NCBI GenBank assembly: GCA_016934095.1
Contig: JAFGTO010000244.1
Location: forward strand, 1-12,398
From: Candidatus Glassbacteria bacterium
GTDB lineage: Bacteria; Gemmatimonadota; Glassbacteria; GWA2-58-10
DNA length: 12,398 bases
Direction: 5' to 3'
This document shows positions 1 to 12,398 of the stretch, in pieces (the first letter of the stretch is position 1; each line of letters opens with the position of its first letter). The translations under genes and the position numbers were made by a program. The notes beneath the pieces are model-generated. The model was not told the origin of the DNA and searched no databases. It saw nothing but the letters and a program-made list of their open reading frames with translations.

Positions 1-2
1 AG

Positions 3-1916
3 TTCCGCAGCAACCGGAAGAACCTCGACCGGATGCTGTACAGCAAGGGAGCCGCCCTGATGGAGTCGGTGCTGCACGACGCTGAGAACGCAGTGCTTGC
101 AGAGCGCGAGATCTCGGAACAGCTCGCCTCCCGCCTGGCGGATAACGCCAGGTACGCCCTGATGCTGGCCGACCGGGGAGCGCAGGCCGGGCGGTCGCTG
201 GCAGCCGCGGCCGCGGAGAACGGGCTGGTCCGCCTGGAGGTGTACGGTCCGGACGGGGGACTGATCGCAACTAGCGACCCGCGCGGCTCACCCGGAATGC
301 TGCCCGCATCCCTGGATGGCCTGGCCGCCGGGGATGAGCCGCTTATCAGGCTGATCCAGGACCCGGCGGGATCCGGGAACGAGCTCCTGGCGGCCGCCGT
401 GCGGGGTGGGGACGGCCGGGCGGGAGTGGCCTATGCCCTGTCGGATGAGCTCTTCGCGCTCCAGCGCCGGCTGGGAATCGGCCTGATCCTCGACGACCTC
501 TCCGCAGTGGAGGGGGTGGCTTACGCCGTGCTCCAGGACACTCTGGGGATCATCGCGGCCTCGAGCGACGTGGTGGAAATCGGCAGTATCGGCAAGGACC
601 CGTTCTTCCCCCTGGCCGCCGGGGAGATCAAGGGGCGCCGCCTGGATTTCTTCGGCGAGGAGGTCTACGAGCTGGCCGCCCTGTTCCAGCTCGGCGGCGA
701 GAGTTTCGGTTACCTGAGGGTCGGGCTCTCGACTGAAGAAGTACGCTCGATTGCCGAGCTGGACCGCAAGAGGTTCGGTTTCGGCATGGCGGTGCTGGCC
801 GTGCTGGCCGCGGTGGCTGTGCTGCTCTACTTTTTCCGCCTCCGCCACCTGCACCTGGAGCAGGAGCACTCGCGCATCAAGAGCTTCTCGGACAGCGTGC
901 TCGAATCCATGGGCGATGCGGTGATTGTCGCCGACCGGGACGGCAGGGTCCTGCTGGTCAACCGTGTCGCCGAAAAGCTATGCGGCACCGACCGGCCGCC
1001 CCTGCCGGGCCGCATGCTCTCGGAGGTGGCTCCCGGCCTGGCGGAAAAGCTCGGAAGCCTGGACACAGATGAGCCGCTGGTCTTGGAGACCGAGCTGCCC
1101 CGGCCCGGCTCTGCAGGACCGCTGCCCGTGCTGGCCACCGCCTCACCCTTATTGGTTGCCGGCAGCCGCTACACTACGGTTATCCTGCGCGACCTGACCG
1201 ACCGCAAGCGCGCCGAGGAGCTGGCCCTGCGCAACGAGAAGTACCAGGTCATGGCCGAGGTCTCGGCCTCGGTGGCCCACGAGATCCGCAACCCGCTCAA
1301 CGCGATCGGGATGAATGTCCAGCGCCTCAAGATGGAGTTCACCCCGCAGGAGGGGAGCCGGGGAGAATACGAGGAGTTCATCGAGATAATCCGCCGCGAG
1401 GTGGAGAGGATCAACGGGATAGTCGAACAGTACCTGACCCTGGCCCGTTTCCCCGGGCCGAAAAAAGAAATGGCGAGGATCGACAGGCTGCTGGCCGATA
1501 CCCTGCAGTTTTTCGCTGCCGAGCTCGCCGGGCGGCGGATCGCGGTGAAAGCGGATATCGCGCCCGCCGGGCCGTTCCCTTTCGATCCCGGGCAGTTGAG
1601 ACAGGTTTTCACCAACCTGATCAAGAACGCCGCCGAAGCCATTGAAAGCGAGGGGACCCTGCTGGTGGCCGGACGCCCGCTGCCGGGGTACTACCAGGTC
1701 TCCGTGCAGGACAGCGGCCCCGGGATCCCCGCAAGCGTGCGGGACAAGGTTTTCGAGCCGTTTTTCAGCACCAAGCAAAGTGGGCTGGGTCTTGGATTGG
1801 CCATTGTCCAGCGCATTGTCGCCGAGCACGGGGGTAATATATCCCTGGAAAGCAGCGGCCGGCCGGGGACCACTTTCGTGGTCACCCTGCCTGCAGACAA
1901 GGAGGATAAAACATGA
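3..1916 (+). CDS. Sensor histidine kinase (periplasmic sensor domain, TM, PAS, HisKA, HATPase_c); 5' end probably truncated by the window edge
   Basis: Frame is open from base 3 and the first in-window Met is at 33. There is no RBS before 33 and no N-terminal TM, so the true start is probably upstream. TM segment FGFGMAVLAVLAAVAVLLYFF. PAS-like SVLESMGDAVIVADRDGRVLLVN. H-box SASVAHEIRNPLNAIGMNVQRL. N-box LIKNAAEAI. G-boxes QDSGPGIP and GLGLGLAIVQRIVAEHGG. Strong GC3 codon bias. Confidence 0.85.
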   Translation, partial: FRSNRKNLDRMLYSKGAALMESVLHDAENAVLAEREISEQLASRLADNARYALMLADRGAQAGRSLAAAAAENGLVRLEVYGPDGGLIATSDPRGSPGMLPASLDGLAAGDEPLIRLIQDPAGSGNELLAAAVRGGDGRAGVAYALSDELFALQRRLGIGLILDDLSAVEGVAYAVLQDTLGIIAASSDVVEIGSIGKDPFFPLAAGEIKGRRLDFFGEEVYELAALFQLGGESFGYLRVGLSTEEVRSIAELDRKRFGFGMAVLAVLAAVAVLLYFFRLRHLHLEQEHSRIKSFSDSVLESMGDAVIVADRDGRVLLVNRVAEKLCGTDRPPLPGRMLSEVAPGLAEKLGSLDTDEPLVLETELPRPGSAGPLPVLATASPLLVAGSRYTTVILRDLTDRKRAEELALRNEKYQVMAEVSASVAHEIRNPLNAIGMNVQRLKMEFTPQEGSRGEYEEFIEIIRREVERINGIVEQYLTLARFPGPKKEMARIDRLLADTLQFFAAELAGRRIAVKADIAPAGPFPFDPGQLRQVFTNLIKNAAEAIESEGTLLVAGRPLPGYYQVSVQDSGPGIPASVRDKVFEPFFSTKQSGLGLGLAIVQRIVAEHGGNISLESSGRPGTTFVVTLPADKEDKT

Positions 1917-3268
1917 AAAGCCACCGTATCCTGGTGGTGGAGGACGAGGAGAACCAGCGCCGCACCCTGGCCGGTTTCCTGAGGAAAAAGGGTTACCGGA
2001 CCGAAGAGGCCCCTTCCGGGGAGGCCGCCCTGGAGCTTGTCCGCAAGCACCTTTACGACCTGGTCCTGACCGACCAGAAAATGGGGGGCATCGGCGGCCT
2101 GGAGCTGCTCAGGGAGGTCAAGGCCGCCAACCCGGAAATCGAGGTGGTCCTGCTGACCGCCTTCGGAGACCTCCGCTCCGCGGTCCAGGCGGTCCGCCAG
2201 GGCGCTTTCGACTACCTGGCCAAGCCGGTGGACCTGGAAGAGCTGGAGCTGACCCTCGAGCGGGCCCTGGAGCGCAGGCAGCTCGTGGTGGAAAACCGGA
2301 TGCTTCGCGAGTCGCTCGGCGAGCGGCAGAGCTTCGAGGAGATCATCTCCGTCAGCGATGCCATGGAGTCTGTGCTCAACATGGCTTCCCGGGTGGCCCG
2401 GGTCGACTCTCCCGTGCTGATCACCGGGGAGTCCGGCACCGGCAAGGAGATGGTGGCCAAGACGATCCACCAGGCCAGCGTGCGCAGGGACCAGCCTTTC
2501 GTGGCGGTAAACTGCGCCGCCCTGAACCAGAACCTCATCGAGAGCGAGCTGTTCGGCCACGAGAAAGGGGCCTTCACCGGCGCCATCCGTCAGCGCCAAG
2601 GCAAACTCGAGTCCGCCGACAGGGGGACCCTGTTCCTCGATGAGCTCGGGGAGATCAGCCCCGAGATCCAGGTTAAACTGCTGCGCTTTCTCCAAGAGCA
2701 CTCGTTCGAGCGGGTCGGCTCGGACCAGGTGCAGCAGGCGGACGTGCGCCTGATCGCCGCTACCAACCGCGACCTGGAGGCAGCCATCCGTCAGGGCGAT
2801 TTCCGCGAAGATTTCTACTACCGGATCAACGTGGTCAATATCCAGATCCCGCCCCTGCGCTCGCGCAGGGAGGACATCCGCCCGCTGATTGATTTCTTCC
2901 TGCAGAGAAACCGCGAGCGTCTCGGGCCGAAGACCTTCTCCAGGCAGGCGCTCGACTCCCTGCTGCGCTACGATTTCCCGGGAAACATCCGGGAGCTGCA
3001 GAACGTGGTCGAGCGGGCCATGGTGCTGGCCAGGAACGAGGTGGTCGACCTGGCCGACCTGCCCCCCTCGGTCACTGCCAGACAGGATAACTTTCCCGGT
3101 GTCCGCGAAATCGGCGGCTCGCTCACCGAGGAGATAGAGAACCTGGAAAGGCGCATGATTACCGCCGCCCTGGAATCCTGCGACAAGGTTCAGGTGCGGG
3201 CCGCGGAAAAGCTGGGAATCACGGAAAGGAACCTGCGCTACAAGATGAAAAAGCTGGGAATCAAATAA
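1913..3268 (+). CDS. Sigma-54-dependent response regulator, NtrC/AtoC/ZraR family (REC + AAA+ sigma-54 activator + Fis-type HTH)
   Basis: Start ATG 1913 overlaps the kinase stop TGA 1914-1916 (ATGA coupling), with a GGAGGA RBS at 1901-1906. REC domain with phospho-acceptor LVLTDQKMGG. Walker A GESGTGKE. GAFTGA motif ESELFGHEKGAFTGA. Walker B/arginine-finger region. C-terminal HTH AAEKLGITERNLRYKMKKLGI. Confidence 0.9.
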   Translation: MKSHRILVVEDEENQRRTLAGFLRKKGYRTEEAPSGEAALELVRKHLYDLVLTDQKMGGIGGLELLREVKAANPEIEVVLLTAFGDLRSAVQAVRQGAFDYLAKPVDLEELELTLERALERRQLVVENRMLRESLGERQSFEEIISVSDAMESVLNMASRVARVDSPVLITGESGTGKEMVAKTIHQASVRRDQPFVAVNCAALNQNLIESELFGHEKGAFTGAIRQRQGKLESADRGTLFLDELGEISPEIQVKLLRFLQEHSFERVGSDQVQQADVRLIAATNRDLEAAIRQGDFREDFYYRINVVNIQIPPLRSRREDIRPLIDFFLQRNRERLGPKTFSRQALDSLLRYDFPGNIRELQNVVERAMVLARNEVVDLADLPPSVTARQDNFPGVREIGGSLTEEIENLERRMITAALESCDKVQVRAAEKLGITERNLRYKMKKLGIK

Positions 3269-3300
3269 GCTTTCGATAAAAAGGATGGAAATTTCGTGTT

Positions 3301-3340
3301 TTCGACCAATTGGTCGAACAACTCTCGACAAAAATGTCGA
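3301..3340. promoter_or_regulatory. Tandem palindromes, candidate enhancer (UAS) sites for the adjacent NtrC-type activator
   Basis: Perfect 18-bp palindrome TTCGACCAATTGGTCGAA at 3301-3318. Second dyad TCGACA-AAAA-TGTCGA at 3325-3340. Centres lie about 160 and about 140 bp upstream of the predicted sigma-54 start site. An AT-rich tract between them and the promoter (3341-3440) is typical of a bending region. Confidence 0.45.
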
Positions 3341-3446
3341 TAATATAGATTTATTTATTTTCCAGGGAAATCCCGCCGGTATTTTTTCGCGTATAACCTG
3401 TTGAAATTCAAATGATTAAGGGTTTCAAATATATTTCAGACAATTT

Positions 3447-3461
3447 TGGCACCGTTCTTGA
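3447..3461 (+). promoter_or_regulatory. Sigma-54 (-24/-12) promoter candidate
   Basis: TGGCACC-GTTC-TTGA matches TGGCACG-N4-TTGCW. The GG and GA(C) elements have the exact 10-nt spacing, with only the -12 C replaced by A. It lies about 75 bp upstream of ATG 3537, directly downstream of a sigma-54 activator gene. Confidence 0.55.
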
Positions 3462-3536
3462 TTAAGGTAAGGGTGCGCGCATCGATTTTATCTTTCGCAG
3501 TATCAGCTTACCTTTAAAGAGCAGAGGAGGTGCCGG

Positions 3537-4388
3537 ATGAAAACCCTGAAAATTCTGCCGGTAATCACTTTTATCGGCGCATTGATGACTTTGAATCCCG
3601 GACTGTACGCCCAGGATGCCGATGACGCAGCCGCGGACGATGGGGCCGCTGTAGCGACGCCCCTGGGCGGAGCCTACCGCCACGGCATGAGGGATGTCGG
3701 GTTCCGCGGCTTTACCGACGAGGACGGCAACGGGCTCAACGACTATCTAGAGGACTCGGACGGCGACGGGGTGGTCAACGCCCACGACCCGGACAGCGAC
3801 CTTTATCGCGGCGAGCCGGGTACGGCTCTGGGACGCGGCCTGGGCTTCGTGGATGAGGACGGCAACGGGCTCAACGACTATCTAGAGGACTCGGACGGCG
3901 ACGGGGTGATCAACGCCCACGACTCCGACAGCCCGCTCTACCGCGACCCCCGCGCCAGGGGCGCTTTCGGGCGCGGCCTGAGCTTTGTGGATGAGGACGG
4001 CAACGGGATCAACGACCGTCTCGAGGACTCGGACGGCGACGGGGTGATCAACGCCCACGACCCGGACAGCCCGCTCTACCGCGACCCCAGCGCCAGGGGC
4101 GTTTTCGGGCGCAGGCTCCGCTTCATCGATGAGAACGGCGACGGTGTCAGCGACTGCCTCGAGGACTCGGACGGCGACGGGGTGATCAACTCCCTCGACC
4201 CCGACAGCCCGCTGTATCGCGGCAGCGCGGCCGGGAACACGGTCAGGGGCGCACGCCTCGGCTCGGCCGGCAAGACTGTCATGCAGCGCGGGTCGGCTTT
4301 CAGCGGACAGTCGCGCTCTACCGGAAGGGCAAGAGTGAGAACGCCCGGGAGCTGCACAACCGCTCCCGCCGGCAGCGGCAGCAATTAA
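3537..4388 (+). CDS. Secreted acidic repeat protein with tandem DxDxDG (thrombospondin type 3 / EF-hand-like) calcium-binding loops
   Basis: RBS AGAGGAGG at 3524-3530. Signal peptide MKTLKILPVITFIGALMTLNPGLYA|QD. About 3.7 copies of a 45-46 aa unit EDGNGLNDYLEDSDGDGVINAHDPDSPLYRDP.ARGAFGRGLSFVD. Each unit carries two back-to-back 12-residue loops, DEDGNGLNDYLE and DSDGDGVINAHD, fitting DxDxDGxxDxxE/D. Confidence 0.8.
   Translation: MKTLKILPVITFIGALMTLNPGLYAQDADDAAADDGAAVATPLGGAYRHGMRDVGFRGFTDEDGNGLNDYLEDSDGDGVVNAHDPDSDLYRGEPGTALGRGLGFVDEDGNGLNDYLEDSDGDGVINAHDSDSPLYRDPRARGAFGRGLSFVDEDGNGINDRLEDSDGDGVINAHDPDSPLYRDPSARGVFGRRLRFIDENGDGVSDCLEDSDGDGVINSLDPDSPLYRGSAAGNTVRGARLGSAGKTVMQRGSAFSGQSRSTGRARVRTPGSCTTAPAGSGSN
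3720..4217 (+). repeat. In-frame tandem DNA repeat, 135-138 bp unit, about 3.7 copies, inside CDS 3537-4388
   Basis: Units begin at 3720, 3855, 3993 and 4131 with GAGGACGGCAACGGG...GAGGACTCGGACGGCGACGGGGTG(A/G)TCAACGCCCACGAC. Copies 1-3 are nearly identical at the nucleotide level and copy 4 is more diverged. Confidence 0.85.
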
Positions 4389-4405
4389 CGATTCTGCAGT
4401 TCTGC

Positions 4406-4437
4406 AGCCCGGGAGCCTCGTACCCGAGGCTCCCGGG
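4406..4437 (+). terminator. GC-rich hairpin (14-bp stem, 4-nt loop) between the two repeat-protein genes; possible intra-operon attenuator or partial terminator
   Basis: GCCCGGGAGCCTCG-TACC-CGAGGCTCCCGGGC is a perfect inverted repeat 18 nt after stop 4388, preceded by the direct repeat TTCTGCAG x2. It is followed by an A-rich tract (AGATAAAACAAACAAAA) rather than a U-tract, so it is not a canonical intrinsic terminator. Confidence 0.35.
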
Positions 4438-4464
4438 CAGATAAAACAAACAAAATCACGGATC

Positions 4465-5136
4465 ATGGGTAAAAGAATTACATACGGCGCGGCAGTGGCG
4501 ATTTTTCTTTTTTGCGGCACTCTTTCCGCACAGCAGGAAAAGGCCCGGCCGGAGACTCGGAAATCAACGGTCCAGCCCGGCGGGTCCGCAGCCCAAAAAG
4601 CAGCCGACAATAAAGAACCCCAGACGCCTGTCGCCGTATTCGGCTTCCAGGACCGGGACCGCGACGGCAAGAACGACCTGTTCCGGGACGCCGACGGCGA
4701 CGGGATCAACGATATCACCAAGAAACCCTACCCTCACAAGTTCAAGTTCGCAGATGAGGACGAGGATAAAATCAACGACTTGTTCGTGGATGCCGACGGC
4801 GACGGGGTGAACGACCTTGAAGTCAAGTTTATCGATGCCGACAGCGACGGGATCAACGACAATATCATCGATGTCGACAAGAACCATATCAACGACATCA
4901 CCGGCCTGCGCTATACCAGCAAGTCCCTGCGGGGGTACAAGTACGGTTTTATCAAGGAGGAGCGCCTGCTGATGATGCGCGGCTTCATCGATGAAGACGG
5001 GGACGGGATCGCGGATGCACCCCGGGGCATGATGCTCAGAAAAGGCATGCGCGACCGGATTATCGACCGGGACGGCGACGGGATCGACGACAGGAGGGAG
5101 ATGATGCGCAAATTCAGACCAGGACCCAGGAGATAG
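4465..5136 (+). CDS. Secreted paralogous DxDGDG-loop repeat protein (degenerate Ca-binding loop repeats)
   Basis: Signal peptide MGKRITYGAAVAIFLFCGTLSA|QQ. Loops DRDRDGKND, DADGDGINDI, DEDEDKINDL, DADGDGVNDL, DADSDGINDN, DEDGDGIADA, DRDGDGIDDR. Codon composition is more AT-rich than the first paralog. Ends TAG 5134-5136, 3 nt before the next start. Confidence 0.75.
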   Translation: MGKRITYGAAVAIFLFCGTLSAQQEKARPETRKSTVQPGGSAAQKAADNKEPQTPVAVFGFQDRDRDGKNDLFRDADGDGINDITKKPYPHKFKFADEDEDKINDLFVDADGDGVNDLEVKFIDADSDGINDNIIDVDKNHINDITGLRYTSKSLRGYKYGFIKEERLLMMRGFIDEDGDGIADAPRGMMLRKGMRDRIIDRDGDGIDDRREMMRKFRPGPRR

Positions 5137-5139
5137 GCA

Positions 5140-6405
5140 ATGAAAAAATTCGGCTTGCTAGGCCTGATACCGCTTTTCCTCTGGGCCGGGATGCTCCGGG
5201 CCCAGAAAGAAGTCAGCGTGGGGACCCACATGCTGGCTGACGACAATATCTTCCGCAACCACACAGGACAGGGCGACTTTGTCGCTGTACCTTACGCCGA
5301 CCTAGGCTACCAGTTCAGTCCCGGCCAGGACACGGAGACACTGGACCTGTTCTACCTAGGCTATTCAGGGCAGTTTTTCCTTTTCCGCGAGCTGAGCCGG
5401 AGGGACTTCTCCGTGCACGGCTTCTCCGCACACTACAACCACCTCTGGCCCGAGTCGCGCAACCTGCTCGCTGTCGGCGGCAAGGTGGAAACCAGGCTCA
5501 ACCCGGAAGACTACAAGTATTTCAACTATACCTCGGGCGGATTTTACCTGAACTACAAGAGATACCTCAGGGAAGACCTGATGCTGCTGGCCGGGTACAA
5601 CCTTACCGGCAAGAACTTTTCCGAATTCCCGGAGTTCAATTACCTGGAAAACATCTTTTCCATCCAGACCAGCCTGTTCCTGCAATCCAGGACCACCCTG
5701 CGGTTTTCCGCCAATTACTACCACAAGAACTACCTCAACAGTATCTCTACTCTGGACTCGGTTTTTGTCGAGCCGCCCCCGGTTTCCGGGCCCATGCCCG
5801 GCATGGGCTATGGATACGGCCGCGGGATGTTCCTCAGGAACCTGTTCCCGGAGGATGTTGGCGAAGGTTTCTACTCGTACCGCATGCGTGCCGATGAATT
5901 CCCCAGCACCGACCAGTTCAAGCTGGGTTTCACAGTGGCCCAGGGCCTGGCCGAGGGCACGGGGATCACCGCGGGCTACACCGCCCGGCTCAACCCCCGC
6001 AACCGCAACCGCTACCTGTCCAACCTCGGCGAATCGGTGCTGAACAATGAAGAGCTTTTCGACGACCACTACAGCTACCTGGGCCACGAGGGCACTTTGC
6101 AGCTCAAGCAAATGCTGCCTGCAGAGTCGATACTGACCCTGATGTTCACCGTGCGCAGCCGCCGTTTCAGCGACCGGCCAGCCCTGGACCTCGAGGGCTA
6201 CCCGCTGCCCTCCGGAGAGGACCGGCGGGACAGGGCTGTGCTTTTCGAGGCCGAGTTCACCAAGCGGCTCAGGCCCGGCATTTCCTGGATCACCGACAAC
6301 CTCGAGCTCTCGGTCGGGTTCGGCCTGGGCAGCAACAGCTCGAACGACCAGTATTACGATTTCAACGACAAATATTTCATTTTCGCCCTGGAAAAAGCCT
6401 TCTAG
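5140..6405 (+). CDS. Putative outer-membrane beta-barrel protein (no heme motif)
   Basis: RBS AGGAGA at 5126-5131. Signal peptide MKKFGLLGLIPLFLWAGMLRA|QKE. High Tyr/Gly/Asn/Ser content with alternating aromatic/hydrophobic patterning typical of amphipathic beta-strands. C-terminus ...YFIFALEKAF ends in Phe as in Bam-dependent OMPs. Co-transcribed with the two repeat proteins. Confidence 0.7.
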   Translation: MKKFGLLGLIPLFLWAGMLRAQKEVSVGTHMLADDNIFRNHTGQGDFVAVPYADLGYQFSPGQDTETLDLFYLGYSGQFFLFRELSRRDFSVHGFSAHYNHLWPESRNLLAVGGKVETRLNPEDYKYFNYTSGGFYLNYKRYLREDLMLLAGYNLTGKNFSEFPEFNYLENIFSIQTSLFLQSRTTLRFSANYYHKNYLNSISTLDSVFVEPPPVSGPMPGMGYGYGRGMFLRNLFPEDVGEGFYSYRMRADEFPSTDQFKLGFTVAQGLAEGTGITAGYTARLNPRNRNRYLSNLGESVLNNEELFDDHYSYLGHEGTLQLKQMLPAESILTLMFTVRSRRFSDRPALDLEGYPLPSGEDRRDRAVLFEAEFTKRLRPGISWITDNLELSVGFGLGSNSSNDQYYDFNDKYFIFALEKAF

Positions 6406-6534
6406 CTCCGCCCTCTCCGCGACCTGGCGCAAGGGAATCCCGTGCCCCCTGCCTCATGCCGCTGCATTTTCTCCGCCCCTCACCATTTTCATGATACAGC
6501 GGACTCACTGTAGCCCGGATACGGTCAATAAGTC

Positions 6535-6563
6535 TTGATTTAATCAGGCGGATATGGTAGCAT
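6535..6563 (+). promoter_or_regulatory. Possible sigma-70-type promoter for the encapsulin operon
   Basis: TTGATT (6535-6540), a 17-bp spacer, then TAGCAT (6558-6563), in the AT-richer spacer about 100 bp upstream of the EncFtn start. Weak matches only. Confidence 0.3.
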
Positions 6564-6669
6564 TTAACAGAGCCGCAAAAATGACCTCCGGGCCCGCCCT
6601 CTCGAGCCCGGCGCCAAATACTTTCAGGCGAAGACATCCTTGAACCTGCCCATCAGAGAGGAGTTTTCC

Positions 6670-7038
6670 ATGAGCAGTACTTATCATGAACCATCCCAGG
6701 AGCTGCCTCCGGAAGTCCGCGATACCCATCGCGCACTGGCGAGCCTGATCGAAGAGCTGGAGGCTATCGACTGGTATAACCAGCGGGCCTCTCTCACCAC
6801 CGACCCGGAGCTCAAAGAGATTGTCCAGCACAACCGGGACGAGGAAATCGAACATGCGGCCATGGCCCTGGAATGGCTGCGCAGGAGGATCCCCAAATTC
6901 GACGAGGAACTGAAGACCTACCTGTTCTCTTCCGGCCCCATTACCGAAATAGAAGAAGCCCTGGCAAAAGAACCTGCTGAAAACGACGCGCCGGCCCCGG
7001 GCAGCCTGGGAATCGGCTCGCTGCGAAAGGAGAGCTGA
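6670..7038 (+). CDS. Encapsulated ferritin-like protein (EncFtn) with C-terminal encapsulin cargo-loading peptide
   Basis: RBS AGAGGAG at 6654-6660, 9 nt before ATG 6670. The track start at 6640 is a TTG with no RBS, so 6670 is preferred. EncFtn signature EELEAIDWYNQRA...DPELKEIVQHNRDEEIEHAAMALEWLRRR (metal-binding Glu/His residues). C-terminal tail ...PGSLGIGSLRKES matches the GSLxIGSLK-type encapsulin targeting peptide. The stop lies 2 nt before the shell gene. Confidence 0.85.
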   Translation: MSSTYHEPSQELPPEVRDTHRALASLIEELEAIDWYNQRASLTTDPELKEIVQHNRDEEIEHAAMALEWLRRRIPKFDEELKTYLFSSGPITEIEEALAKEPAENDAPAPGSLGIGSLRKES

Positions 7039-7040
7039 CG

Positions 7041-7841
7041 ATGAGCGACATTCTGCGACGTTCACTGGCTCCGCTGACGGAAGCCGCCTGGAAGGAAATC
7101 GACAGGACGGCCTCGAACATCCTCAAAGCAAGCCTCACCGGGCGCAAGCTGGTTGACTGCGACGGGCCCCACGGCCTGGAGCTGGGTGCGGTGAACCTGG
7201 GCCGCCTGGCAATCCCCGAGAAACATAAGAGGGCGGGTGTAAGCTGGGGCGTGCGCGAGGTGCTGCCGCTGGTGGAGTTACGGGTACCCTTCCAGCTCGA
7301 CCAGATGGAGCTGGACTCGATCTCCAGGGGCTCGAAGGATGTCGACCTGGGTCCGCTGGAAAAAGCCGCCAGGGCAGTGGTCGATTTCGAGGAATCCGCA
7401 ATCTACAAAGGCTTTCCGGAGGCCAGGGTCCAGGGCATACTCAAAGCCGCAAAACACGCCCCGCTCAAGATCCCCGCCGCACGCGAAGACTGCCCCAAGG
7501 CCGTGGCCGAGGGGATCAAGCTGCTGTCCGAGGCGGGAATCGAGGGGCCTTACGCGCTGGTCCTCTGCCTGGAGTGCTACCATGAGCTGATCGCCACCGC
7601 CAAGGGATACCCTACTTTCCGGGTGGCGGAGCGCCTGGTGGAAGGCGGGATATTCTACAGCAGCGCCCTCAAGGGCGGCGTGCTGCTGTCCGTGCGCGGC
7701 GGAGATTTCGAGCTGACCCTGGGCCAGGATATCTCCATCGGCTTCTCGGGCTGCACCGCGGACAAAGTGGAGCTCTATTTTGCCGAGTCTTTCACTTTCC
7801 GCGTGCTGGAGCCGCTGGCCGCTGTCGAGCTGAAACCCTGA
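7041..7841 (+). CDS. Family 1 encapsulin nanocompartment shell protein (HK97 fold; Linocin_M18 family)
   Basis: RBS AAAGGAGAG at 7026-7034. Sequence is collinear with the T. maritima encapsulin: LRRSLAPLTEAAWKEID, GRKLVDCDGPHG, WGVREVLPLVELRVPFQL..ELD..RG..DVDLGPLE, GIEGPYALV, RGGDFELTLGQDISIGF, ESFTFRVLEP. The 266-aa length is typical. Confidence 0.9.
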   Translation: MSDILRRSLAPLTEAAWKEIDRTASNILKASLTGRKLVDCDGPHGLELGAVNLGRLAIPEKHKRAGVSWGVREVLPLVELRVPFQLDQMELDSISRGSKDVDLGPLEKAARAVVDFEESAIYKGFPEARVQGILKAAKHAPLKIPAAREDCPKAVAEGIKLLSEAGIEGPYALVLCLECYHELIATAKGYPTFRVAERLVEGGIFYSSALKGGVLLSVRGGDFELTLGQDISIGFSGCTADKVELYFAESFTFRVLEPLAAVELKP

Positions 7842-7899
7842 CCCCGCGGTATAATCAGGGAACGGGCGCCGGACGGACTTGGACCGTTTGTTTACCCGA

Positions 7900-7935
7900 G
7901 GGGCACATTTATGCATGTGCCCCATTTTATTCTCC
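7900..7935 (+). terminator. Rho-independent terminator after the encapsulin operon
   Basis: GGGGCACAT-TTATGC-ATGTGCCCC (9-bp stem, 6-nt loop) followed by ATTTTATTCT, about 60 bp after stop 7841. Confidence 0.6.
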
Positions 7936-8004
7936 TGATTGCCGTAAGCTGCCTGACAGTACTGATGCAGAAACCGCTGATATCAGCCAGGGTGCCGGGG
8001 TAAA

Positions 8005-8080
8005 ATCGTGTTACTTTTTCTAAATATTAACGTTAAAAAATACCGGGATTATCTGTCATTCCAGCCGGTATAAATTCATC
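8005..8080 (+). promoter_or_regulatory. AT-rich putative promoter region for the cytochrome operon
   Basis: TTACTT (8011-8016) is spaced 17 bp from TAAAAA (8034-8039). A strong -10-like GGTATAAAT sits at 8067-8075 with a poor -35. No TGGCAC-type sigma-54 element was seen here. The exact promoter is unresolved. Confidence 0.25.
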
Positions 8081-8111
8081 CAATTAAATCTTACCTGATG
8101 AAAGGGTTTAT

Positions 8112-9473
8112 ATGCGATCAGCCCGTAAAGTCTTAGCTGTCGTTGTCATTGGCACGGTTGTGGCGGGAGCGGGCTTACTGGCCCAGGTCAAGGCAGGCGA
8201 CGCCGCCCATGGCACCAGGCAGTACGACCAGTATAAAAAACCCAAGTTCTGCGGTACTTCCTGCCATACCGACTTCTATCGCCAGTGGCGCCAGGAGATG
8301 CACTCCCAGGCCTATGTCCACCACTGGGACGAGATCGAGTATTTCAAGCTGGCCGTGCCCCACGCGGAAAAAGACCCGGCCGTGGCCGGGGTCAGGGATG
8401 GCTGTAATGGCTGCCATGCGCCGGTGTCTTTCCTGGCGGGCGACACCCCTCCGCCCAGGCCCGAGGAAAACAGCCGGGCCAACGAAGCTGTCACCTGCGA
8501 CCTGTGCCATACTATCACCGGTTTCGAGTCAGACACTCCCCACAACTTCAACTATTATTCCGAGCCGGGGAACGTGAAATACGGGCCCAGGGGCGGGGTA
8601 ACCTCTCCTGAGCACGTGATCGAGGTCAGCAAGTTCCTGCCTTCCGCAGAGTTCTGCGGCACCTGCCATAACGAGAAAAGCCCTTACGGGGTATGGGTCA
8701 AATCGACCCACCTCGAGTGGAAGGAAGGGCCTTACGCAGCCGAGGGAGTCCCCTGCCACGACTGCCACATGCCAAGGGCCGAGGGCAGGAGGGCCTCGAT
8801 GGGTAAGGCCTACCCGGACATCCGTCAGCACCTGTTCCACGGCGCTCACGACAACGGCAAGATCAGGGGCACGGTGGAGCTGCGCATCCACCCGGATATC
8901 GATGAGACCGAGCCGGGCGAAAAAGTGGTCTTTACCGTGGTGCTCTTCAACCAGAAAGCCGGCCACAAGTTCCCCACCGGCTCGGTGGAGGACCGGATTG
9001 TCTGGCTGCATGTCGAGGCCACCGATGCCCAGGGCAAGGTCTATCACCTGCCGGTGGACCCCAAGGGTTTCGAGGGGGAAGAGTATACGATCGCCCGGGA
9101 CGTCCTGGCCTACCAGGACATGGGCATAGCGCTGAACGACCCCGGCTTCCAGGGCGTGCAGCGGGATGGGGTCCCGGTGGGAGACCGTATTTTCCGCATG
9201 CCCTATTTCGACCCCCAGGGCCGGATGACGATCCAGCAGTGGAACACCAAGAGCCTGGGTGTAGACTACCGGATACCCCCCAGGGGTACCAGGGTGGAGA
9301 CTTTCTCCTTCAGCCTGCCGTTCGAGGTCGCCCCGGGCAGGATGACTGTCGAAGCCACGCTCAACTACAGCAAGCTGGTCAAACCGGTGGCAGAGCTGCT
9401 CGAGGTGCCGCCGGATGAAACTGAAACAGTTGTGGTCAACGAGCATTCTACCGTAATCAACGTATTCGACTGA
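8112..9473 (+). CDS. Multiheme c-type cytochrome (five heme-binding motifs) with a C-terminal heme-free, probably beta-sandwich, domain
   Basis: Signal or anchor peptide MRSARKVLAVVVIGTVVAGAGLLAQVKA. Heme motifs CGTSCH (CX3CH), CNGCH, CDLCH, CGTCH and CHDCHMP. The GVPCHDCHMPRAEG segment resembles the NrfA-family CxDCHMP heme, but the family's distal heme is missing. The last about 200 aa are Cys-free. Confidence 0.85.
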   Translation: MRSARKVLAVVVIGTVVAGAGLLAQVKAGDAAHGTRQYDQYKKPKFCGTSCHTDFYRQWRQEMHSQAYVHHWDEIEYFKLAVPHAEKDPAVAGVRDGCNGCHAPVSFLAGDTPPPRPEENSRANEAVTCDLCHTITGFESDTPHNFNYYSEPGNVKYGPRGGVTSPEHVIEVSKFLPSAEFCGTCHNEKSPYGVWVKSTHLEWKEGPYAAEGVPCHDCHMPRAEGRRASMGKAYPDIRQHLFHGAHDNGKIRGTVELRIHPDIDETEPGEKVVFTVVLFNQKAGHKFPTGSVEDRIVWLHVEATDAQGKVYHLPVDPKGFEGEEYTIARDVLAYQDMGIALNDPGFQGVQRDGVPVGDRIFRMPYFDPQGRMTIQQWNTKSLGVDYRIPPRGTRVETFSFSLPFEVAPGRMTVEATLNYSKLVKPVAELLEVPPDETETVVVNEHSTVINVFD

Positions 9474-9483
9474 AGAAGGAAAA

Positions 9484-10665
9484 ATGAAAAAAAAGACGTT
9501 TTACACCCTGGTCTTTTCCCTGGCGGCCGCCGGTCTGTGTTCCATCTTTACGGCCGAGTCCGCCTATGCTGTCCCGGCTTTCGCCAGGAAATACCGGCTG
9601 AGCTGCAAGACCTGCCACCAGCCGATCCCCAGGCTGAAACCTTATGGGGATGAATTCGCCGGCAACGGTTTCGTGCTCACCGACCAGGAAGCGCCCAGGT
9701 ATTTTGTCGAGACCGGGGACGACGAGCTCTCGCTGATCCGGGATTTCCCCATCGCCGTGCGCCTGGAAGGGTTCATCAACTACAACGACGTGGCGGGAAA
9801 AAGGTCGGACTTCAACACTCCATACCTGTTGAAGCTGCTCTCCGGCGGGGCCCTGACCAAAAACATCGCCTATTACTTCTATTTCTACATGGATGAGAGA
9901 GGAGAGGTGGCCGGTGTCGAGGACGCCTATGTCATGTTCAACAACCTGCTGGGAGTCGACCTGGATATCTACGCAGGCCAGTTCCAGGTCTCCGACCCCC
10001 TGTTCAAGCGGGAGCTGCGCCTGACCCTGGAGGACTACCAGGCCTACAAGTCCACTCCGGGCCGCTCGGGGATAAACCTGACCTATGACAGGGGTATCAT
10101 GGTAACTTACGGGTTGCCCAGCGGCACCGACCTGATTTTCGAGGTGGTCAACGGCAACGGCTTGAGCGAGGCGGACGAGGACAAGAACTTCGACTCCGAC
10201 AGGTACAAGAATTTCATGGGACGCATCTCCCAGGATGTCGGTAAATACCTGCGCCTGGGTGTGTTCGGCTACACCGGCCGGGAAAAGAGCGCCGGCCGGC
10301 TGAACCAGGCCTGGCTGGCCGGTCCCGACCTGACAGTGTCAATCAACGAAAAGTTCGAGCTGAACCTGCAGTATGTCGAGAGAAGGGACACCAACCCTTA
10401 TTTCCTCAGCTCCGGCTACCGGGACCTCAAGACCAGGGGCGCGCTCGGCGAGATGGTGATCGCCCCCCGGGGCAGCGACGGCAAGGTCTACCTGGTGGGG
10501 CTGTTCAACTGGACAGACTCGGACGACAATTCGGAGGATTTCAAGAGCCTGACCGGTCATCTCAGCTACCTGCTGCGCAGGAACATCCGTCTGGTCGGCG
10601 AGGTAACCCACAACTGGGCCAATGATACCAACCGCCTCGGCGTGGGTTTTGTCTCGGCGTTCTAG
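9484..10665 (+). CDS. cyc2: Cyc2-like fused monoheme cytochrome c-porin (outer membrane; candidate Fe(II) oxidase or extracellular electron conduit)
   Basis: RBS GAAGGAAAA, start 11 nt after the cytochrome stop. Signal peptide MKKKTFYTLVFSLAAAGLCSIFTAESAYA|VP. A single CKTCH heme motif lies within 15 residues of the mature N-terminus inside PAFARKYRLSCKTCHQP, which matches the conserved N-terminal cytochrome module of Cyc2. The remaining about 340 aa are rich in Tyr/Gly/Asn beta-strand patterning and end GVGFVSAF (terminal Phe), consistent with a porin barrel. The family assignment is from memory, not from a search. Confidence 0.6.
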   Translation: MKKKTFYTLVFSLAAAGLCSIFTAESAYAVPAFARKYRLSCKTCHQPIPRLKPYGDEFAGNGFVLTDQEAPRYFVETGDDELSLIRDFPIAVRLEGFINYNDVAGKRSDFNTPYLLKLLSGGALTKNIAYYFYFYMDERGEVAGVEDAYVMFNNLLGVDLDIYAGQFQVSDPLFKRELRLTLEDYQAYKSTPGRSGINLTYDRGIMVTYGLPSGTDLIFEVVNGNGLSEADEDKNFDSDRYKNFMGRISQDVGKYLRLGVFGYTGREKSAGRLNQAWLAGPDLTVSINEKFELNLQYVERRDTNPYFLSSGYRDLKTRGALGEMVIAPRGSDGKVYLVGLFNWTDSDDNSEDFKSLTGHLSYLLRRNIRLVGEVTHNWANDTNRLGVGFVSAF

Positions 10666-10701
10666 CTGTCTTTGCTCGGGATTTCACCATAGAGCCGGAT
10701 A

Positions 10702-10730
10702 GGGGGGACCTTCCAAGGCCCCCCTTTTTT
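10702..10730 (+). terminator. Rho-independent terminator after the cytochrome/porin pair
   Basis: GGGGGGACC-TTCCAA-GGCCCCCC followed by TTTTTT, about 35 bp after stop 10665. Flanking CCGGAT/ATCCGG could extend the stem. Confidence 0.75.
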
Positions 10731-10943
10731 ATCCGGTATACCGACTCCCCGGTTTTAGCTGAATCGGCCAGCGAGCGCATTCCCCGCAGCTCGCTGCCGG
10801 GAGTCTTCAATCAGCACAATCAGGAACAGACCCCGGTCCGGCTCATGCTCCCCGGCTGCGAGTTGTTAATAAGGTCGCACGCTTGGTGCAACTGATTATT
10901 AGCTGATCACAGGGCTATTATTACACCCTCCGCACCATAAACT

Positions 10944-10974
10944 TGTTGTCTTTTAGCGAATCCTGTGATAAAAT
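10944..10974 (+). promoter_or_regulatory. Possible sigma-70 promoter for the DUF4234-like gene
   Basis: TTGTTG (10944-10949), then an 18-bp spacer, then an extended -10-like TGTGATAAAAT (10964-10974). It lies about 90 bp upstream of ATG 11064 in an AT-rich spacer. Confidence 0.3.
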
Positions 10975-11063
10975 ATTAATACGGCGCCCGCCGTGCCGCT
11001 TGCTCGTATCAACAGATCCCTTTTTCCCGCAGTATTCTTCCCTCTGCCCCAAGGAGGCCCCGG

Positions 11064-11546
11064 ATGGACGAACAGCCACAAGCCGAATCATTGGGAAAGG
11101 TCCGCAATCCTGTGGTCATGGTACTCCTGTTGATCATCACCATAAATATTTACTGGGTTGTCTGGCTGTACAAGATATATTCCGAGATTCGCAGGCGGTC
11201 CACCGATGTTACCGGTGTAACCCCGGGTAAAGCCGCCGGTTTTATCTTCATCCCGGTATTCAATATCTTCTGGGCGTTCTATATCATCGTGGATTTCCCC
11301 CGCGCCATCCGCCGTCTCCAGGAGGCCGACCCGCCCACCGGGAATCTCCTGAACAACTCTCTGGTAGTGATCCTGCTGATCGTGGGCTTGCTGATCAACA
11401 TTATTATTGCCCAATTCCAGCCTGCTTTCCTGCTGCTGGGCGAAATACTGCTGATTGCAGGTCTGCTGATGTCGCAAGAGGCCCTGAACGGCCATTGGCG
11501 GGCACATCAAGCCGCAGCGGGCGGGCCGGCGCCGGAGCAATCCTGA
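11064..11546 (+). CDS. Small polytopic membrane protein, DUF4234-like, with an internal duplication
   Basis: Strong RBS AAGGAGG at 11051-11057. Two homologous halves, NPVVMVLLLIITINIYWVVWLYKIYSEIRR and AAGFIFIPVFNIFWAFYIIVDFPRAIRR, each with an IY/IF-W-x-x-Y motif as in DUF4234-family proteins. Two further hydrophobic helices follow. Codon usage is markedly AT-richer than neighbouring genes. Confidence 0.65.
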   Translation: MDEQPQAESLGKVRNPVVMVLLLIITINIYWVVWLYKIYSEIRRRSTDVTGVTPGKAAGFIFIPVFNIFWAFYIIVDFPRAIRRLQEADPPTGNLLNNSLVVILLIVGLLINIIIAQFQPAFLLLGEILLIAGLLMSQEALNGHWRAHQAAAGGPAPEQS

Positions 11547-11851
11547 GCAGTCGCGGTCGAAGCGGGCACCAGGCTTAATTCGGGCTCATGTCCGGACCCG
11601 GACAGGCACGCCCTGAGAAAACTTTTTCATAAGACGGTAACCTTGCAGCCGGCAACAACGTTAAACGTTCGACAGTGTTCAAAATGACCTGTCTTGTTCC
11701 CTGCTTCAATGAGCATAAGACAGCCGTCCGGAAATAAATTACTGGTTTTTCCCGGCCTGCCAGCGGTATGCCGCCAGTCCCGCTTACCCCACAGGCAGGC
11801 CGCCTCCAACTGACAACGTGCATTACCGCACTTCCCGAGCTTGCAGACAAG

Positions 11852-12398
11852 ATGACCCGGCTTACCCTGCGCATACCGGCGTTTTTGCTGCTGTTGCTGA
11901 CCGCTTTTCCCGGCATTGGCGAGCTTTCGGGGAAGGTGTTTTTCAGCGGCAGCTCCCAGTCTCTTTTCTACTACCTGGAAAACTACCCCGGCAGCGGCGG
12001 CCAGGGCTCGGTCTGCAATTTCAGGTCCTACGAGTCGGTGAGGATGAAGCTGGTCGGCAGGGGCAGCAAGAACAGCCTGGGTTTCCATACTTTTTTTCGC
12101 ACCAGCCAGGATCTGAATGTCGATTACGAAGAGGACCCGCTGCACCGCCTCTACAACGGCTACCTGGAGTGGATACACGGCCGCTTCAGCGCCGCCGCGG
12201 GCCGCCAGTGGCTGCACCTGGGAGTGGGGAGCCTCACCCTGGACGGGGCGAAAGTGAGCTATACGGACCCGCGCTATCTCGAGGTTACCGGCTACCTGGG
12301 CACGGAGAGTCCCTACACCCGACATTTCAGCCTCAGCGGTTGGGACAGGGCCAGGGCCGGGGGAGTCTACCTGAGCAGCAAAGCGCTCAAGCCGCTCA
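11852..12398 (+). CDS. Secreted protein of unknown function, 3' partial (runs off the window); possibly an outer-membrane beta-barrel
   Basis: Open + frame with strong GC3 bias. It is not in the ORF track because it has no stop in the window. Signal peptide MTRLTLRIPAFLLLLLTAFPGIGELSG. Tyr/Gly/Ser-rich alternating pattern (FFSGSSQSLFYYLENYPGSGG...). An alternative in-frame ATG at 11768 gives a poorer signal peptide. It overlaps and is preferred over the antisense track ORF 11627-12325. Confidence 0.55.
   Translation, partial: MTRLTLRIPAFLLLLLTAFPGIGELSGKVFFSGSSQSLFYYLENYPGSGGQGSVCNFRSYESVRMKLVGRGSKNSLGFHTFFRTSQDLNVDYEEDPLHRLYNGYLEWIHGRFSAAAGRQWLHLGVGSLTLDGAKVSYTDPRYLEVTGYLGTESPYTRHFSLSGWDRARAGGVYLSSKALKPL

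Follow-up and report, generated by a model that had tools for sequence, protein, structure and literature searches.

Two adjacent operons in a Glassbacteria contig

We analysed a 12398-bp stretch of DNA (hereafter, the window), which is an entire contig from a metagenome-assembled genome (MAG) of Candidatus Glassbacteria and in which all convincing genes lie on the + strand. A preliminary description of this DNA had recognised two neighbouring gene units: an operon for an encapsulated ferritin (EncFtn) with its encapsulin shell, and an operon for a putative outer-membrane Fe(II) oxidase with a cytochrome partner. It had also proposed that the two are linked in function or regulation. Both units were found on the + strand, adjacent and co-oriented, and their arrangement was thus confirmed. 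The features of the two operons are as follows.

6670-7038, +, EncFtn, encapsulated ferritin cargo (PF22277, TIGR04535)
7041-7841, +, family-1 encapsulin shell protein (PF04454, NF041155)
7900-7923, +, intrinsic terminator ending the encapsulin operon (9-bp stem, -17 kcal/mol, z -4.15, U-rich tail AUUUUAUU)
8112-9473, +, five-haem c-type cytochrome of 453 amino acids (aa) with an N-terminal signal or anchor (haem motifs)
9484-10665, +, predicted Cyc2-type fused monohaem cytochrome/16-strand outer-membrane porin, 393 aa (motifs, AlphaFold2 model, Foldseek)
10702-10730, +, intrinsic terminator ending the cytochrome operon (GGGGGGACCUUCCAAGGCCCCCC then UUUUUU; -28.7 kcal/mol, z -3.97)

The EncFtn protein matched PF22277 (1.2e-40, 137.6 bits; cutoff 27) and TIGR04535 (153.5 bits; cutoff 125), and was aligned from end to end with the EncFtn structure of Haliangium ochraceum, 7OE2 (1.3e-36). 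Its open reading frame (ORF) opens at TTG 6640, and the start codon is likely to be ATG 6670, which follows a GAGGAG ribosome-binding site. The Glu/His ferroxidase region (EEIEH) is kept, with HNRDEEIEHAAM aligned to HNKNEEVEHAMM of 7OE2, and the C-terminal localisation sequence GSLGIGSLRKE was aligned to GSLGIGSLRQE of H. ochraceum. The encapsulin gene starts 2 nt past the end of the EncFtn gene. Its product, which is annotated by NCBI as 'bacteriocin family protein', matched PF04454 (6e-80, 268.6 bits; cutoff 24.3) and NF041155 (280.3 bits; cutoff 100). The top solved relatives were T=1 shells (7ODW, 1.6e-66; 3DKT, 1.2e-56), and the match to T=3/T=4 shells was about 50 orders of magnitude poorer. 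Judged from its sequence, the pair of EncFtn and family-1 encapsulin is a canonical operon with a strong terminator at 7900-7923.

The EncFtn-encapsulin systems of H. ochraceum and Rhodospirillum rubrum (7ODW, 7OE2, 5N5F, 5DA5) likewise have the EncFtn gene immediately before the shell gene. The EncFtn domain of the window matched them at 1e-31 to 1e-36, the shell of about 265 aa matched at 1.6e-66, and the localisation peptide GSLGIGSLR(K/Q)E is common to both. We observed no structural difference from these systems; the genomic position of the window's operon is the one unusual point. By analogy with the solved homologues, EncFtn would be packaged via its C-terminal localisation peptide into a small T=1-like shell. 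Inside this cytoplasmic shell it would oxidise Fe(II), and the iron would be kept as mineral.

The five-haem cytochrome and its Cyc2-type partner

The first product of the second operon carries the haem motif CGTSCH (CX3CH) at residue 47 and CXXCH motifs at residues 98, 129, 182, and 215, and all 10 of its Cys residues lie within these motifs. NCBI annotates it as 'NapC/NirT family cytochrome c'. The mean column identity was 78% over 20 homologues from Glassbacteria, Zixibacteria, and Ignavibacteria, and the first haem motif was CX3CH in 67 of 73 homologues. The only meaningful solved relative was the penta-haem c552 of Thermochromatium tepidum (5ZE8, 3.3e-8, in two stretches). An AlphaFold2 model of the protein had a mean predicted local distance difference test score (pLDDT) of 44.6, too poor for use.

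We also considered whether the protein is a polysulfide reductase of the MccSep/ExtKL type and rejected this identity; the match to NF040886 reached 59.7 bits against a cutoff of 250, and the protein contains neither a free Cys nor a Sec. The c552 of T. tepidum and MccSep/ExtKL of Geobacter sulfurreducens (bioRxiv 10.1101/2025.11.18.688581) resemble the window protein in having about 450 aa, five haems, and an N-terminal signal, and the match to the ExtKL model was weak (below the cutoff). In contrast to MccSep, the window cytochrome lacks counterparts to Cys239, a haem ligand, and to Sec/Cys325, the catalytic residue, and its CX3CH first haem motif distinguishes it from both c552 and MccSep. 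Furthermore, its gene is tied to that of an outer-membrane cytochrome-porin, whereas the MccSep preprint describes none.

The cytochrome-porin gene starts 10 nt past the five-haem cytochrome gene, and its 393-aa product has the same sequence (100% identity) as a 'hypothetical protein' recorded by NCBI for Candidatus Glassbacteria. Keffer et al. (PMC8406198) defined Cyc2 by a signal peptide, a single CXXCH, an upstream AXPXFAR[Q/K][T/Y] motif stated to be unique to Cyc2, PXL 4 residues downstream of CXXCH, a length of 365 aa or more, and a porin of 16 strands similar to OprP/OprO. The 393-aa protein has a hydrophobic N-terminus ending ...AESAYA|VPAF, consistent with a signal peptide. It has one CXXCH, CKTCH at residues 41-45, which is invariant in 18 homologues. 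The residues A-V-P-A-F-A-R-K-Y at 29-37 correspond to the upstream motif, and P31, A32, F33, A34, R35, and Y37 are invariant in the same homologues. The N-terminal stretch reads AVPAFARKY-RLS-CKTCH-QPI-PRL, in which PXL is present as CKTCH-QPI-PRL with Pro at +4. Three residues lie between the motif Tyr and the first Cys; PMC8406198 gives the distance as '5 amino acids upstream', which may or may not denote the same spacing. The C-terminus, ...GFVSAF, ends in the Phe typical for outer-membrane barrels.

The AlphaFold2 model of this protein contained 16 strands of 8-16 residues each, at a moderate mean pLDDT of 68.7. When the model was used in a Foldseek search, the top matches were all 16-strand porins, and OprP (2O4V) and OprO (4RJW), the templates named by Keffer et al. 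(PMC8406198), were among the matches. No meaningful match was obtained when PDB sequences were searched with a profile of the Cyc2-like family. Taken together, the motifs and the predicted fold support the assignment of the 393-aa protein to the Cyc2 family by all sequence and architecture criteria examined.

Compared with known members, namely Cyc2PV-1 of Mariprofundus, Cyc2 of Acidithiobacillus ferrooxidans, and Cyt572 of Leptospirillum, the window protein matches in motifs, length, and the 16-strand porin. Its barrel is unusually conserved (across phyla the identity is 55-66%, and an alignment of 18 sequences had a mean column identity of 65%), whereas Keffer et al. (PMC8406198) stressed that Cyc2 porins are poorly conserved. 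The hosts also differ from those of known Cyc2, as proteins of the window type occur in Glassbacteria, Ignavibacteria, Zixibacteria, KSB1, and Aminicenantes. In the rus operon of A. ferrooxidans, the partner of Cyc2 is the dihaem cytochrome Cyc1; the gene of the window type is instead nearly always preceded by a five-haem cytochrome.

This pairing was examined in species-representative genomes scanned with the Cyc2-like protein. The best 80 of 586 confirmed stretches and three loci fetched earlier gave 83 loci with flanks of up to 10 kb per side, and the flanks were searched by tblastn with ten window proteins at a threshold of 1e-5. In 81 of the 83 loci, the gene immediately upstream of the Cyc2-like gene was that for the five-haem cytochrome, and the remaining two loci were truncated by contig ends. 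The two genes are a near-obligate pair in Glassbacteria, Ignavibacteria, Zixibacteria, and allied phyla. In a literature search we found no description of a Cyc2 with a pentahaem partner, nor relevant data on Rosettibacter or Melioribacter. Several records with the FCB-type gene pair (L004, L005, L007, L022, L043, L075-L077, and L080 in our numbering of loci) are titled 'archaeon', 'Gemmatimonadales', 'Hyphomicrobiales', or 'Eubacteriales'. These labels look unreliable; L005 showed 99.9% identity to a contig that carries the complete Glassbacteria-like island described below.

The five-haem cytochrome, which is probably periplasmic, and the Cyc2-type porin would together pass electrons across the outer membrane. 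From the architecture, the haem of the Cyc2-like protein is expected to lie in or at the barrel, and its electron exchange with the five-haem protein is expected to occur at the periplasmic face. Cyc2-type proteins are believed to oxidise dissolved Fe2+ at the outer membrane, with the iron staying extracellular (PMC8406198). Cyc2 homologues have also been reported in Fe(III)-reducing Ignavibacteriaceae (PMC6344600). Cyc2 of cluster 3 is dominant in MAGs of Ignavibacteriales and Zixibacteria (PMC8478452), a report that is suggestive only as to the cluster of the window protein. The function of cluster 3 is 'most uncertain' according to Keffer et al. (PMC8406198), and FeGenie handles cluster-3 Cyc2 as ambiguous, with 'possible iron reduction'. 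Because homologues occur in Fe(III) reducers and the function of cluster 3 is uncertain, 'putative Fe(II) oxidase' is just one possibility for the 393-aa protein. Accordingly, the part of the preliminary description that concerned an outer-membrane protein with a cytochrome partner is retained in the form of a Cyc2-type fused porin and its five-haem partner, and the wording 'Fe(II)-oxidising' was an over-reading.

A conserved island with an additional operon

The window contains further genes and elements on both sides of the two operons.

33-1916, +, PAS sensor histidine kinase, first gene of the island (HisKA, HATPase_c, and PAS domains)
1913-3268, +, sigma-54-dependent response regulator of the NtrC/AtoC/ZraR type (Response_reg, Sigma54_activat at 5.9e-73, HTH_8)
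3302-3340, +, two tandem palindromes TCGAC-N6-GTCGA (2 matches versus 0.10 expected; nowhere else in the window)
3447-3461, +, sigma-54-type promoter TGGCACCGTTCTTGA upstream of the gene at 3537 (promoter search)
3537-4388, +, secreted Asp-rich repeat protein, 4 x ~DEDGNG.ND.LEDSDGDGVINAHDPDSPLYR (repeats seen in the translation)
4465-5136, +, second secreted Asp-rich repeat protein, DxDxDG (66% identity to the L096 orthologue)
5140-6405, +, probable outer-membrane barrel of 421 aa, last conserved gene ahead of the insertion (signal peptide, C-terminal ...LEKAF)
11064-11546, +, DUF4328/DUF4234 membrane protein (Pfam match), within a second lineage-specific insertion at about 10653-11894
11852-12398, +, 5' part of a porin-like gene, first 182 codons, truncated by the contig end (tblastn)

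Five related lineages keep one gene order: kinase, sigma-54 regulator, two repeat proteins, barrel, five-haem cytochrome, and Cyc2-like protein. Encapsulin was absent from all five, including the closest, L096. Moreover, neither encapsulin nor EncFtn was detected in any of the 83 Cyc2-like loci within the flanks searched. The place that the encapsulin operon occupies in the window, between the barrel gene and the cytochrome gene, is filled in the relatives as follows.

L096/L097: 229 bp; five-haem cytochrome with 86% amino acid identity to that of the window
L001/L005: 917 bp with a 57-aa ORF
L089: gene for a 148-aa secreted helical protein; Cyc2-like protein with 72% identity to that of the window
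L098/L099: 287 bp
L007: about 390 bp

In the window the same slot measures 1.7 kb, versus the 229 bp of L096. When the DNA of L096 was aligned with the window, four collinear blocks were obtained, at window positions 1-4208, 4637-6403, 8205-10652, and 11895-12393. Two parts were specific to the window: the encapsulin operon, together with its spacers, and the region of the DUF4328 gene. The spacers of L001/L005, L007, L002, and L003 are too diverged from those of the window for boundaries to be defined at the DNA level; L096 alone aligns, and it does so in the coding flanks. Since the collinear blocks of L096 leave the encapsulin operon specific to the window and the slot differs among the relatives, we regard the operon as a lineage-specific insertion. 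The slot gene of L089 (847-1293) encodes a 148-aa secreted protein that is Lys/Glu-rich and helical and matched no family; a Spy/ZraP-like identity for this protein was considered and rejected, as it had no Pfam support.

The adjacency was also searched for from the encapsulin side. The nearest encapsulins were only 66-59% identical to that of the window, relatives over the range of 66-38% identity stood in unrelated contexts that lack the cytochrome pair, and a metagenome scan with the encapsulin gave 5 loci only. Around these nearest encapsulins and the five metagenome loci, neither cytochrome had a homologue, and proteins with CXXCH were all but absent; at 5 encapsulin loci with long flanks, the adjacency was not seen. 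Two of the encapsulin loci deserve a separate remark. The closest homologue (66%; L084/L085, 9652-10804) has no upstream EncFtn gene and is divergently oriented beside a histidine kinase and a sigma-54 response regulator, the latter with 37% identity to its counterpart in the window. In L087 (9060-9424), the EncFtn upstream of a 59%-identical encapsulin matched as two overlapping pieces in different frames, with a called gene of 56 aa; this split is probably a frameshift or a sequencing error.

The preliminary description had suggested comparative genomics as a check of its proposal. In this comparison a conserved adjacency of encapsulin/EncFtn and cyc2 was absent, and by that description's own reasoning such an outcome speaks against the linkage. 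The proposed functional or regulatory link was therefore not supported: the adjacency occurred in 0 of 83 Cyc2-like loci, 0 of 5 syntenic relatives, and 0 of 5 encapsulin loci, and a terminator separates the two units. Because it is not conserved, we read the adjacency as coincidence. Overall, we consider it probable that two self-contained modules of known type came to stand side by side through a lineage-specific insertion of the encapsulin operon into a conserved electron-transfer island. The second module is part of this island, which comprises the kinase, the sigma-54 regulator, the two Asp-rich proteins, the barrel, the cytochrome pair, the porin-like protein, and multihaem cytochromes; Rieske/cytochrome b genes follow the island in several relatives. 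The encapsulin operon sits in a variable intergenic slot of the island, with its own terminator and with no sign of control common with the cytochrome pair.

An ancestral presence of the encapsulin operon in the island, followed by its loss from all the sampled relatives, would also produce this distribution, and the varying lengths of the slot spacers (229-917 bp) could be taken as decay. This history, however, requires losses in five lineages, the closest relative included, and no remnant of encapsulin or EncFtn was found by tblastn in the spacer of any relative. Besides, the nearest encapsulins are only 66% identical and stand in unrelated contexts, whereas the flanking island genes have relatives of 77-86% identity. 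We consequently judge ancestral loss to be highly improbable.

As the window is a single 12.4-kb MAG contig with two insertions relative to its closest relative, the adjacency might also be thought an assembly artefact, that is, a chimeric join. Both flanks of each insertion are, however, collinear with L096, so that two precise chimeric joins would be needed for each insertion. In addition, the G+C of 6500-8000 (0.56-0.63) is like that of the rest of the window. An artefact is accordingly the least credible of the explanations considered here, and we regard it as almost certainly wrong.

The remaining genes of the island were characterised by their orthologues. The kinase (33-1916) had AtoS and ZraS as its top NCBIfam matches, both under the cutoff, and orthologues of 52-71% identity occupy the equivalent position in L096, L005, L007, and L098. 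The response regulator (1913-3268) was 81% identical to its L096 orthologue. Orthologues of the repeat protein at 3537-4388 were found in L096, L005, L007, and L098. Neither this protein nor that at 4465-5136 matched any Pfam or NCBIfam family. An example of the DxDxDG-type repeat in these secreted proteins is DEDGNGLNDYLEDSDGDGVINAHDPDSPLYR, which occurs 4x. By its repeats, the first protein is probably Ca-binding, and the two may possibly bind Ca2+ or metal in the envelope. In the five related lineages, both repeat-protein genes are always followed by the gene for a barrel protein of 415-442 aa. The barrel of the window (5140-6405) matched no family in the searches and has orthologues of 55-65% identity in L096, L001, L007, L089, and L098.

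At the other end of the window, the second window-specific insertion (about 10653-11894) separates the Cyc2-like gene from the porin-like gene; only 290 bp lie between these genes in L096. A tblastn search with the 412-aa haem-free porin-like protein of L096 matched window 11903-12397 with 77% identity over 166 aa. Downstream of the porin-like orthologue, the relatives have a multihaem cytochrome gene (12 CXXCH were counted in the L001 copy), and in some relatives these two genes are followed by a gene for a 672-aa multihaem cytochrome and then by Rieske/cytochrome b genes. The order of a haem-free porin-like gene and a multihaem cytochrome gene is like that in the porin-cytochrome (Pcc-type) clusters of Ignavibacterium and Melioribacter (PMC6137239). 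The window, in contrast to these clusters, holds the porin-like gene only up to codon 182, and the likeness is one of gene layout.

Regulation and possible relations between the modules

The sequences outside the genes were also compared. The tandem palindromes at 3302-3340 are probable candidate enhancer sites for the response regulator. The sigma-54-type promoter at 3447 is identical in L096, and equivalent places carry TGGCATCCTTTTTGA in L005 and TGGCACGTAACTTGT in L007; its -12 element is TTGA/TTGT instead of the consensus TTGC. Palindromes and promoter are kept together upstream of the first Asp-rich repeat gene in L096 (6665-6920), L005 (4421-4690), and L007 (5043-5300). From this conserved arrangement, they probably delimit the regulon governed by the neighbouring kinase and regulator.

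The two spacers bordering the encapsulin operon gave a different picture. The preliminary description had suggested a search for shared regulator motifs in the spacers 6406-6669 and 7842-8111, and nothing beyond chance was found there. The best match in a Fur-box scan of both spacers was 11/19, equal to that of shuffles, and no words of 10-16 nt with 0-3 mismatches were common to the two spacers in either orientation. Upstream of the EncFtn gene and of the cytochrome gene, in the window and in the relatives, no sigma-54 promoter was detected; the site at 3447 was the sole one. A search of Rfam at a permissive threshold returned two chance-level matches only and no riboswitch. The terminator and spacer that the preliminary description had placed between the operons were observed, the terminator at 7900-7923 being followed by a 188-bp AT-rich spacer up to the cytochrome gene with one weak promoter-like site (7977-8006, 9/12 positions).

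Several observations weigh against a simple insertion of an independent operon. The stretch from 3447 to 7900 showed no terminator on the + strand, and the encapsulin genes could be read through from the island promoter and thereby share control with the upstream half of the island. No tRNA was found, and repeats, whether direct or inverted, are missing from the borders of the insertion, which consequently bears no mobile-element signature; the G+C over 6500-8000 shows no anomaly. The insertion also landed within an island for redox/metal chemistry and not in an arbitrary place. Finally, a recent functional recruitment in this one lineage, of which a single genome was seen, might have taken place, although we regard it as quite unlikely.

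The first of these observations leads to an explanation in which the encapsulin operon is a functional part of the upstream unit: it would be transcribed by read-through from the 3447 promoter together with the Asp-rich and barrel genes, would follow the kinase/regulator response, and would have no link with the cytochromes. All the genes concerned share one strand, no convincing + strand terminator occurs past 3447 before that at 7900, and a hairpin at 6588-6611 was not significant and has no U-tract. Furthermore, the closest encapsulin homologue (L084/L085) is also located beside a kinase and a sigma-54 regulator, though divergently, and that regulator, only 37% identical, is not necessarily an orthologue. 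A spacer of 264 bp, however, precedes EncFtn, and the slot is empty or otherwise filled in every relative, indicating that encapsulin is no conserved member of the operon. We therefore hold this explanation to be unlikely, though it has an appreciable chance of being correct. If the encapsulin genes share control with any neighbour at all, the upstream sigma-54 operon would be a more likely partner than the downstream cytochromes.

A further reading is that, in this lineage, an extracellular-electron-transfer island under sigma-54 control captured the EncFtn compartment, which is now transcribed from the island promoter. Such a capture appears very improbable to us. If it were true, cytoplasmic iron sequestration would be switched on with the outer-membrane redox machinery, and iron redox and iron storage would have become coupled recently and in this lineage only.

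What survives of the original proposal is likewise confined to this lineage: the encapsulin would buffer iron that enters through Cyc2-type surface redox, and the modules would answer one signal. Both modules are directly or potentially iron-related, adjacent, and co-oriented. No mention of 'Cyc2' and 'encapsulin' together was found in the literature searched, and such a link would thus be undescribed; this silence fits an undescribed link and a non-existent one alike. Against the proposal, none of the 83 Cyc2-like loci and none of the five syntenic relatives has the adjacency, and the modules are separated by a strong terminator and share no motif or Fur box. The Cyc2 model, moreover, keeps the iron outside the cell (PMC8406198), which leaves no obvious route to a cytoplasmic compartment, and in this Cyc2-like clade electrons may flow in either direction. 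Hence, little likelihood is left for this proposal. A genuine link would tie energy-yielding surface iron redox to compartmentalised iron storage and would apparently be undescribed; we found no evidence of such a coupling of surface iron redox with encapsulated iron storage.

We thus return to the insertion of an encapsulin operon into a conserved electron-transfer island, which probably accounts for the locus. What results is an accidental neighbourhood, which adds one routine encapsulin and one routine member of the Cyc2 family. The near-obligate pairing of the Cyc2-like protein with a five-haem cytochrome is a modestly useful side result. For the clade of Glassbacteria, Ignavibacteria, Zixibacteria, and their allies, caution is advised when cyc2 is used as a metagenomic marker of Fe(II) oxidation.

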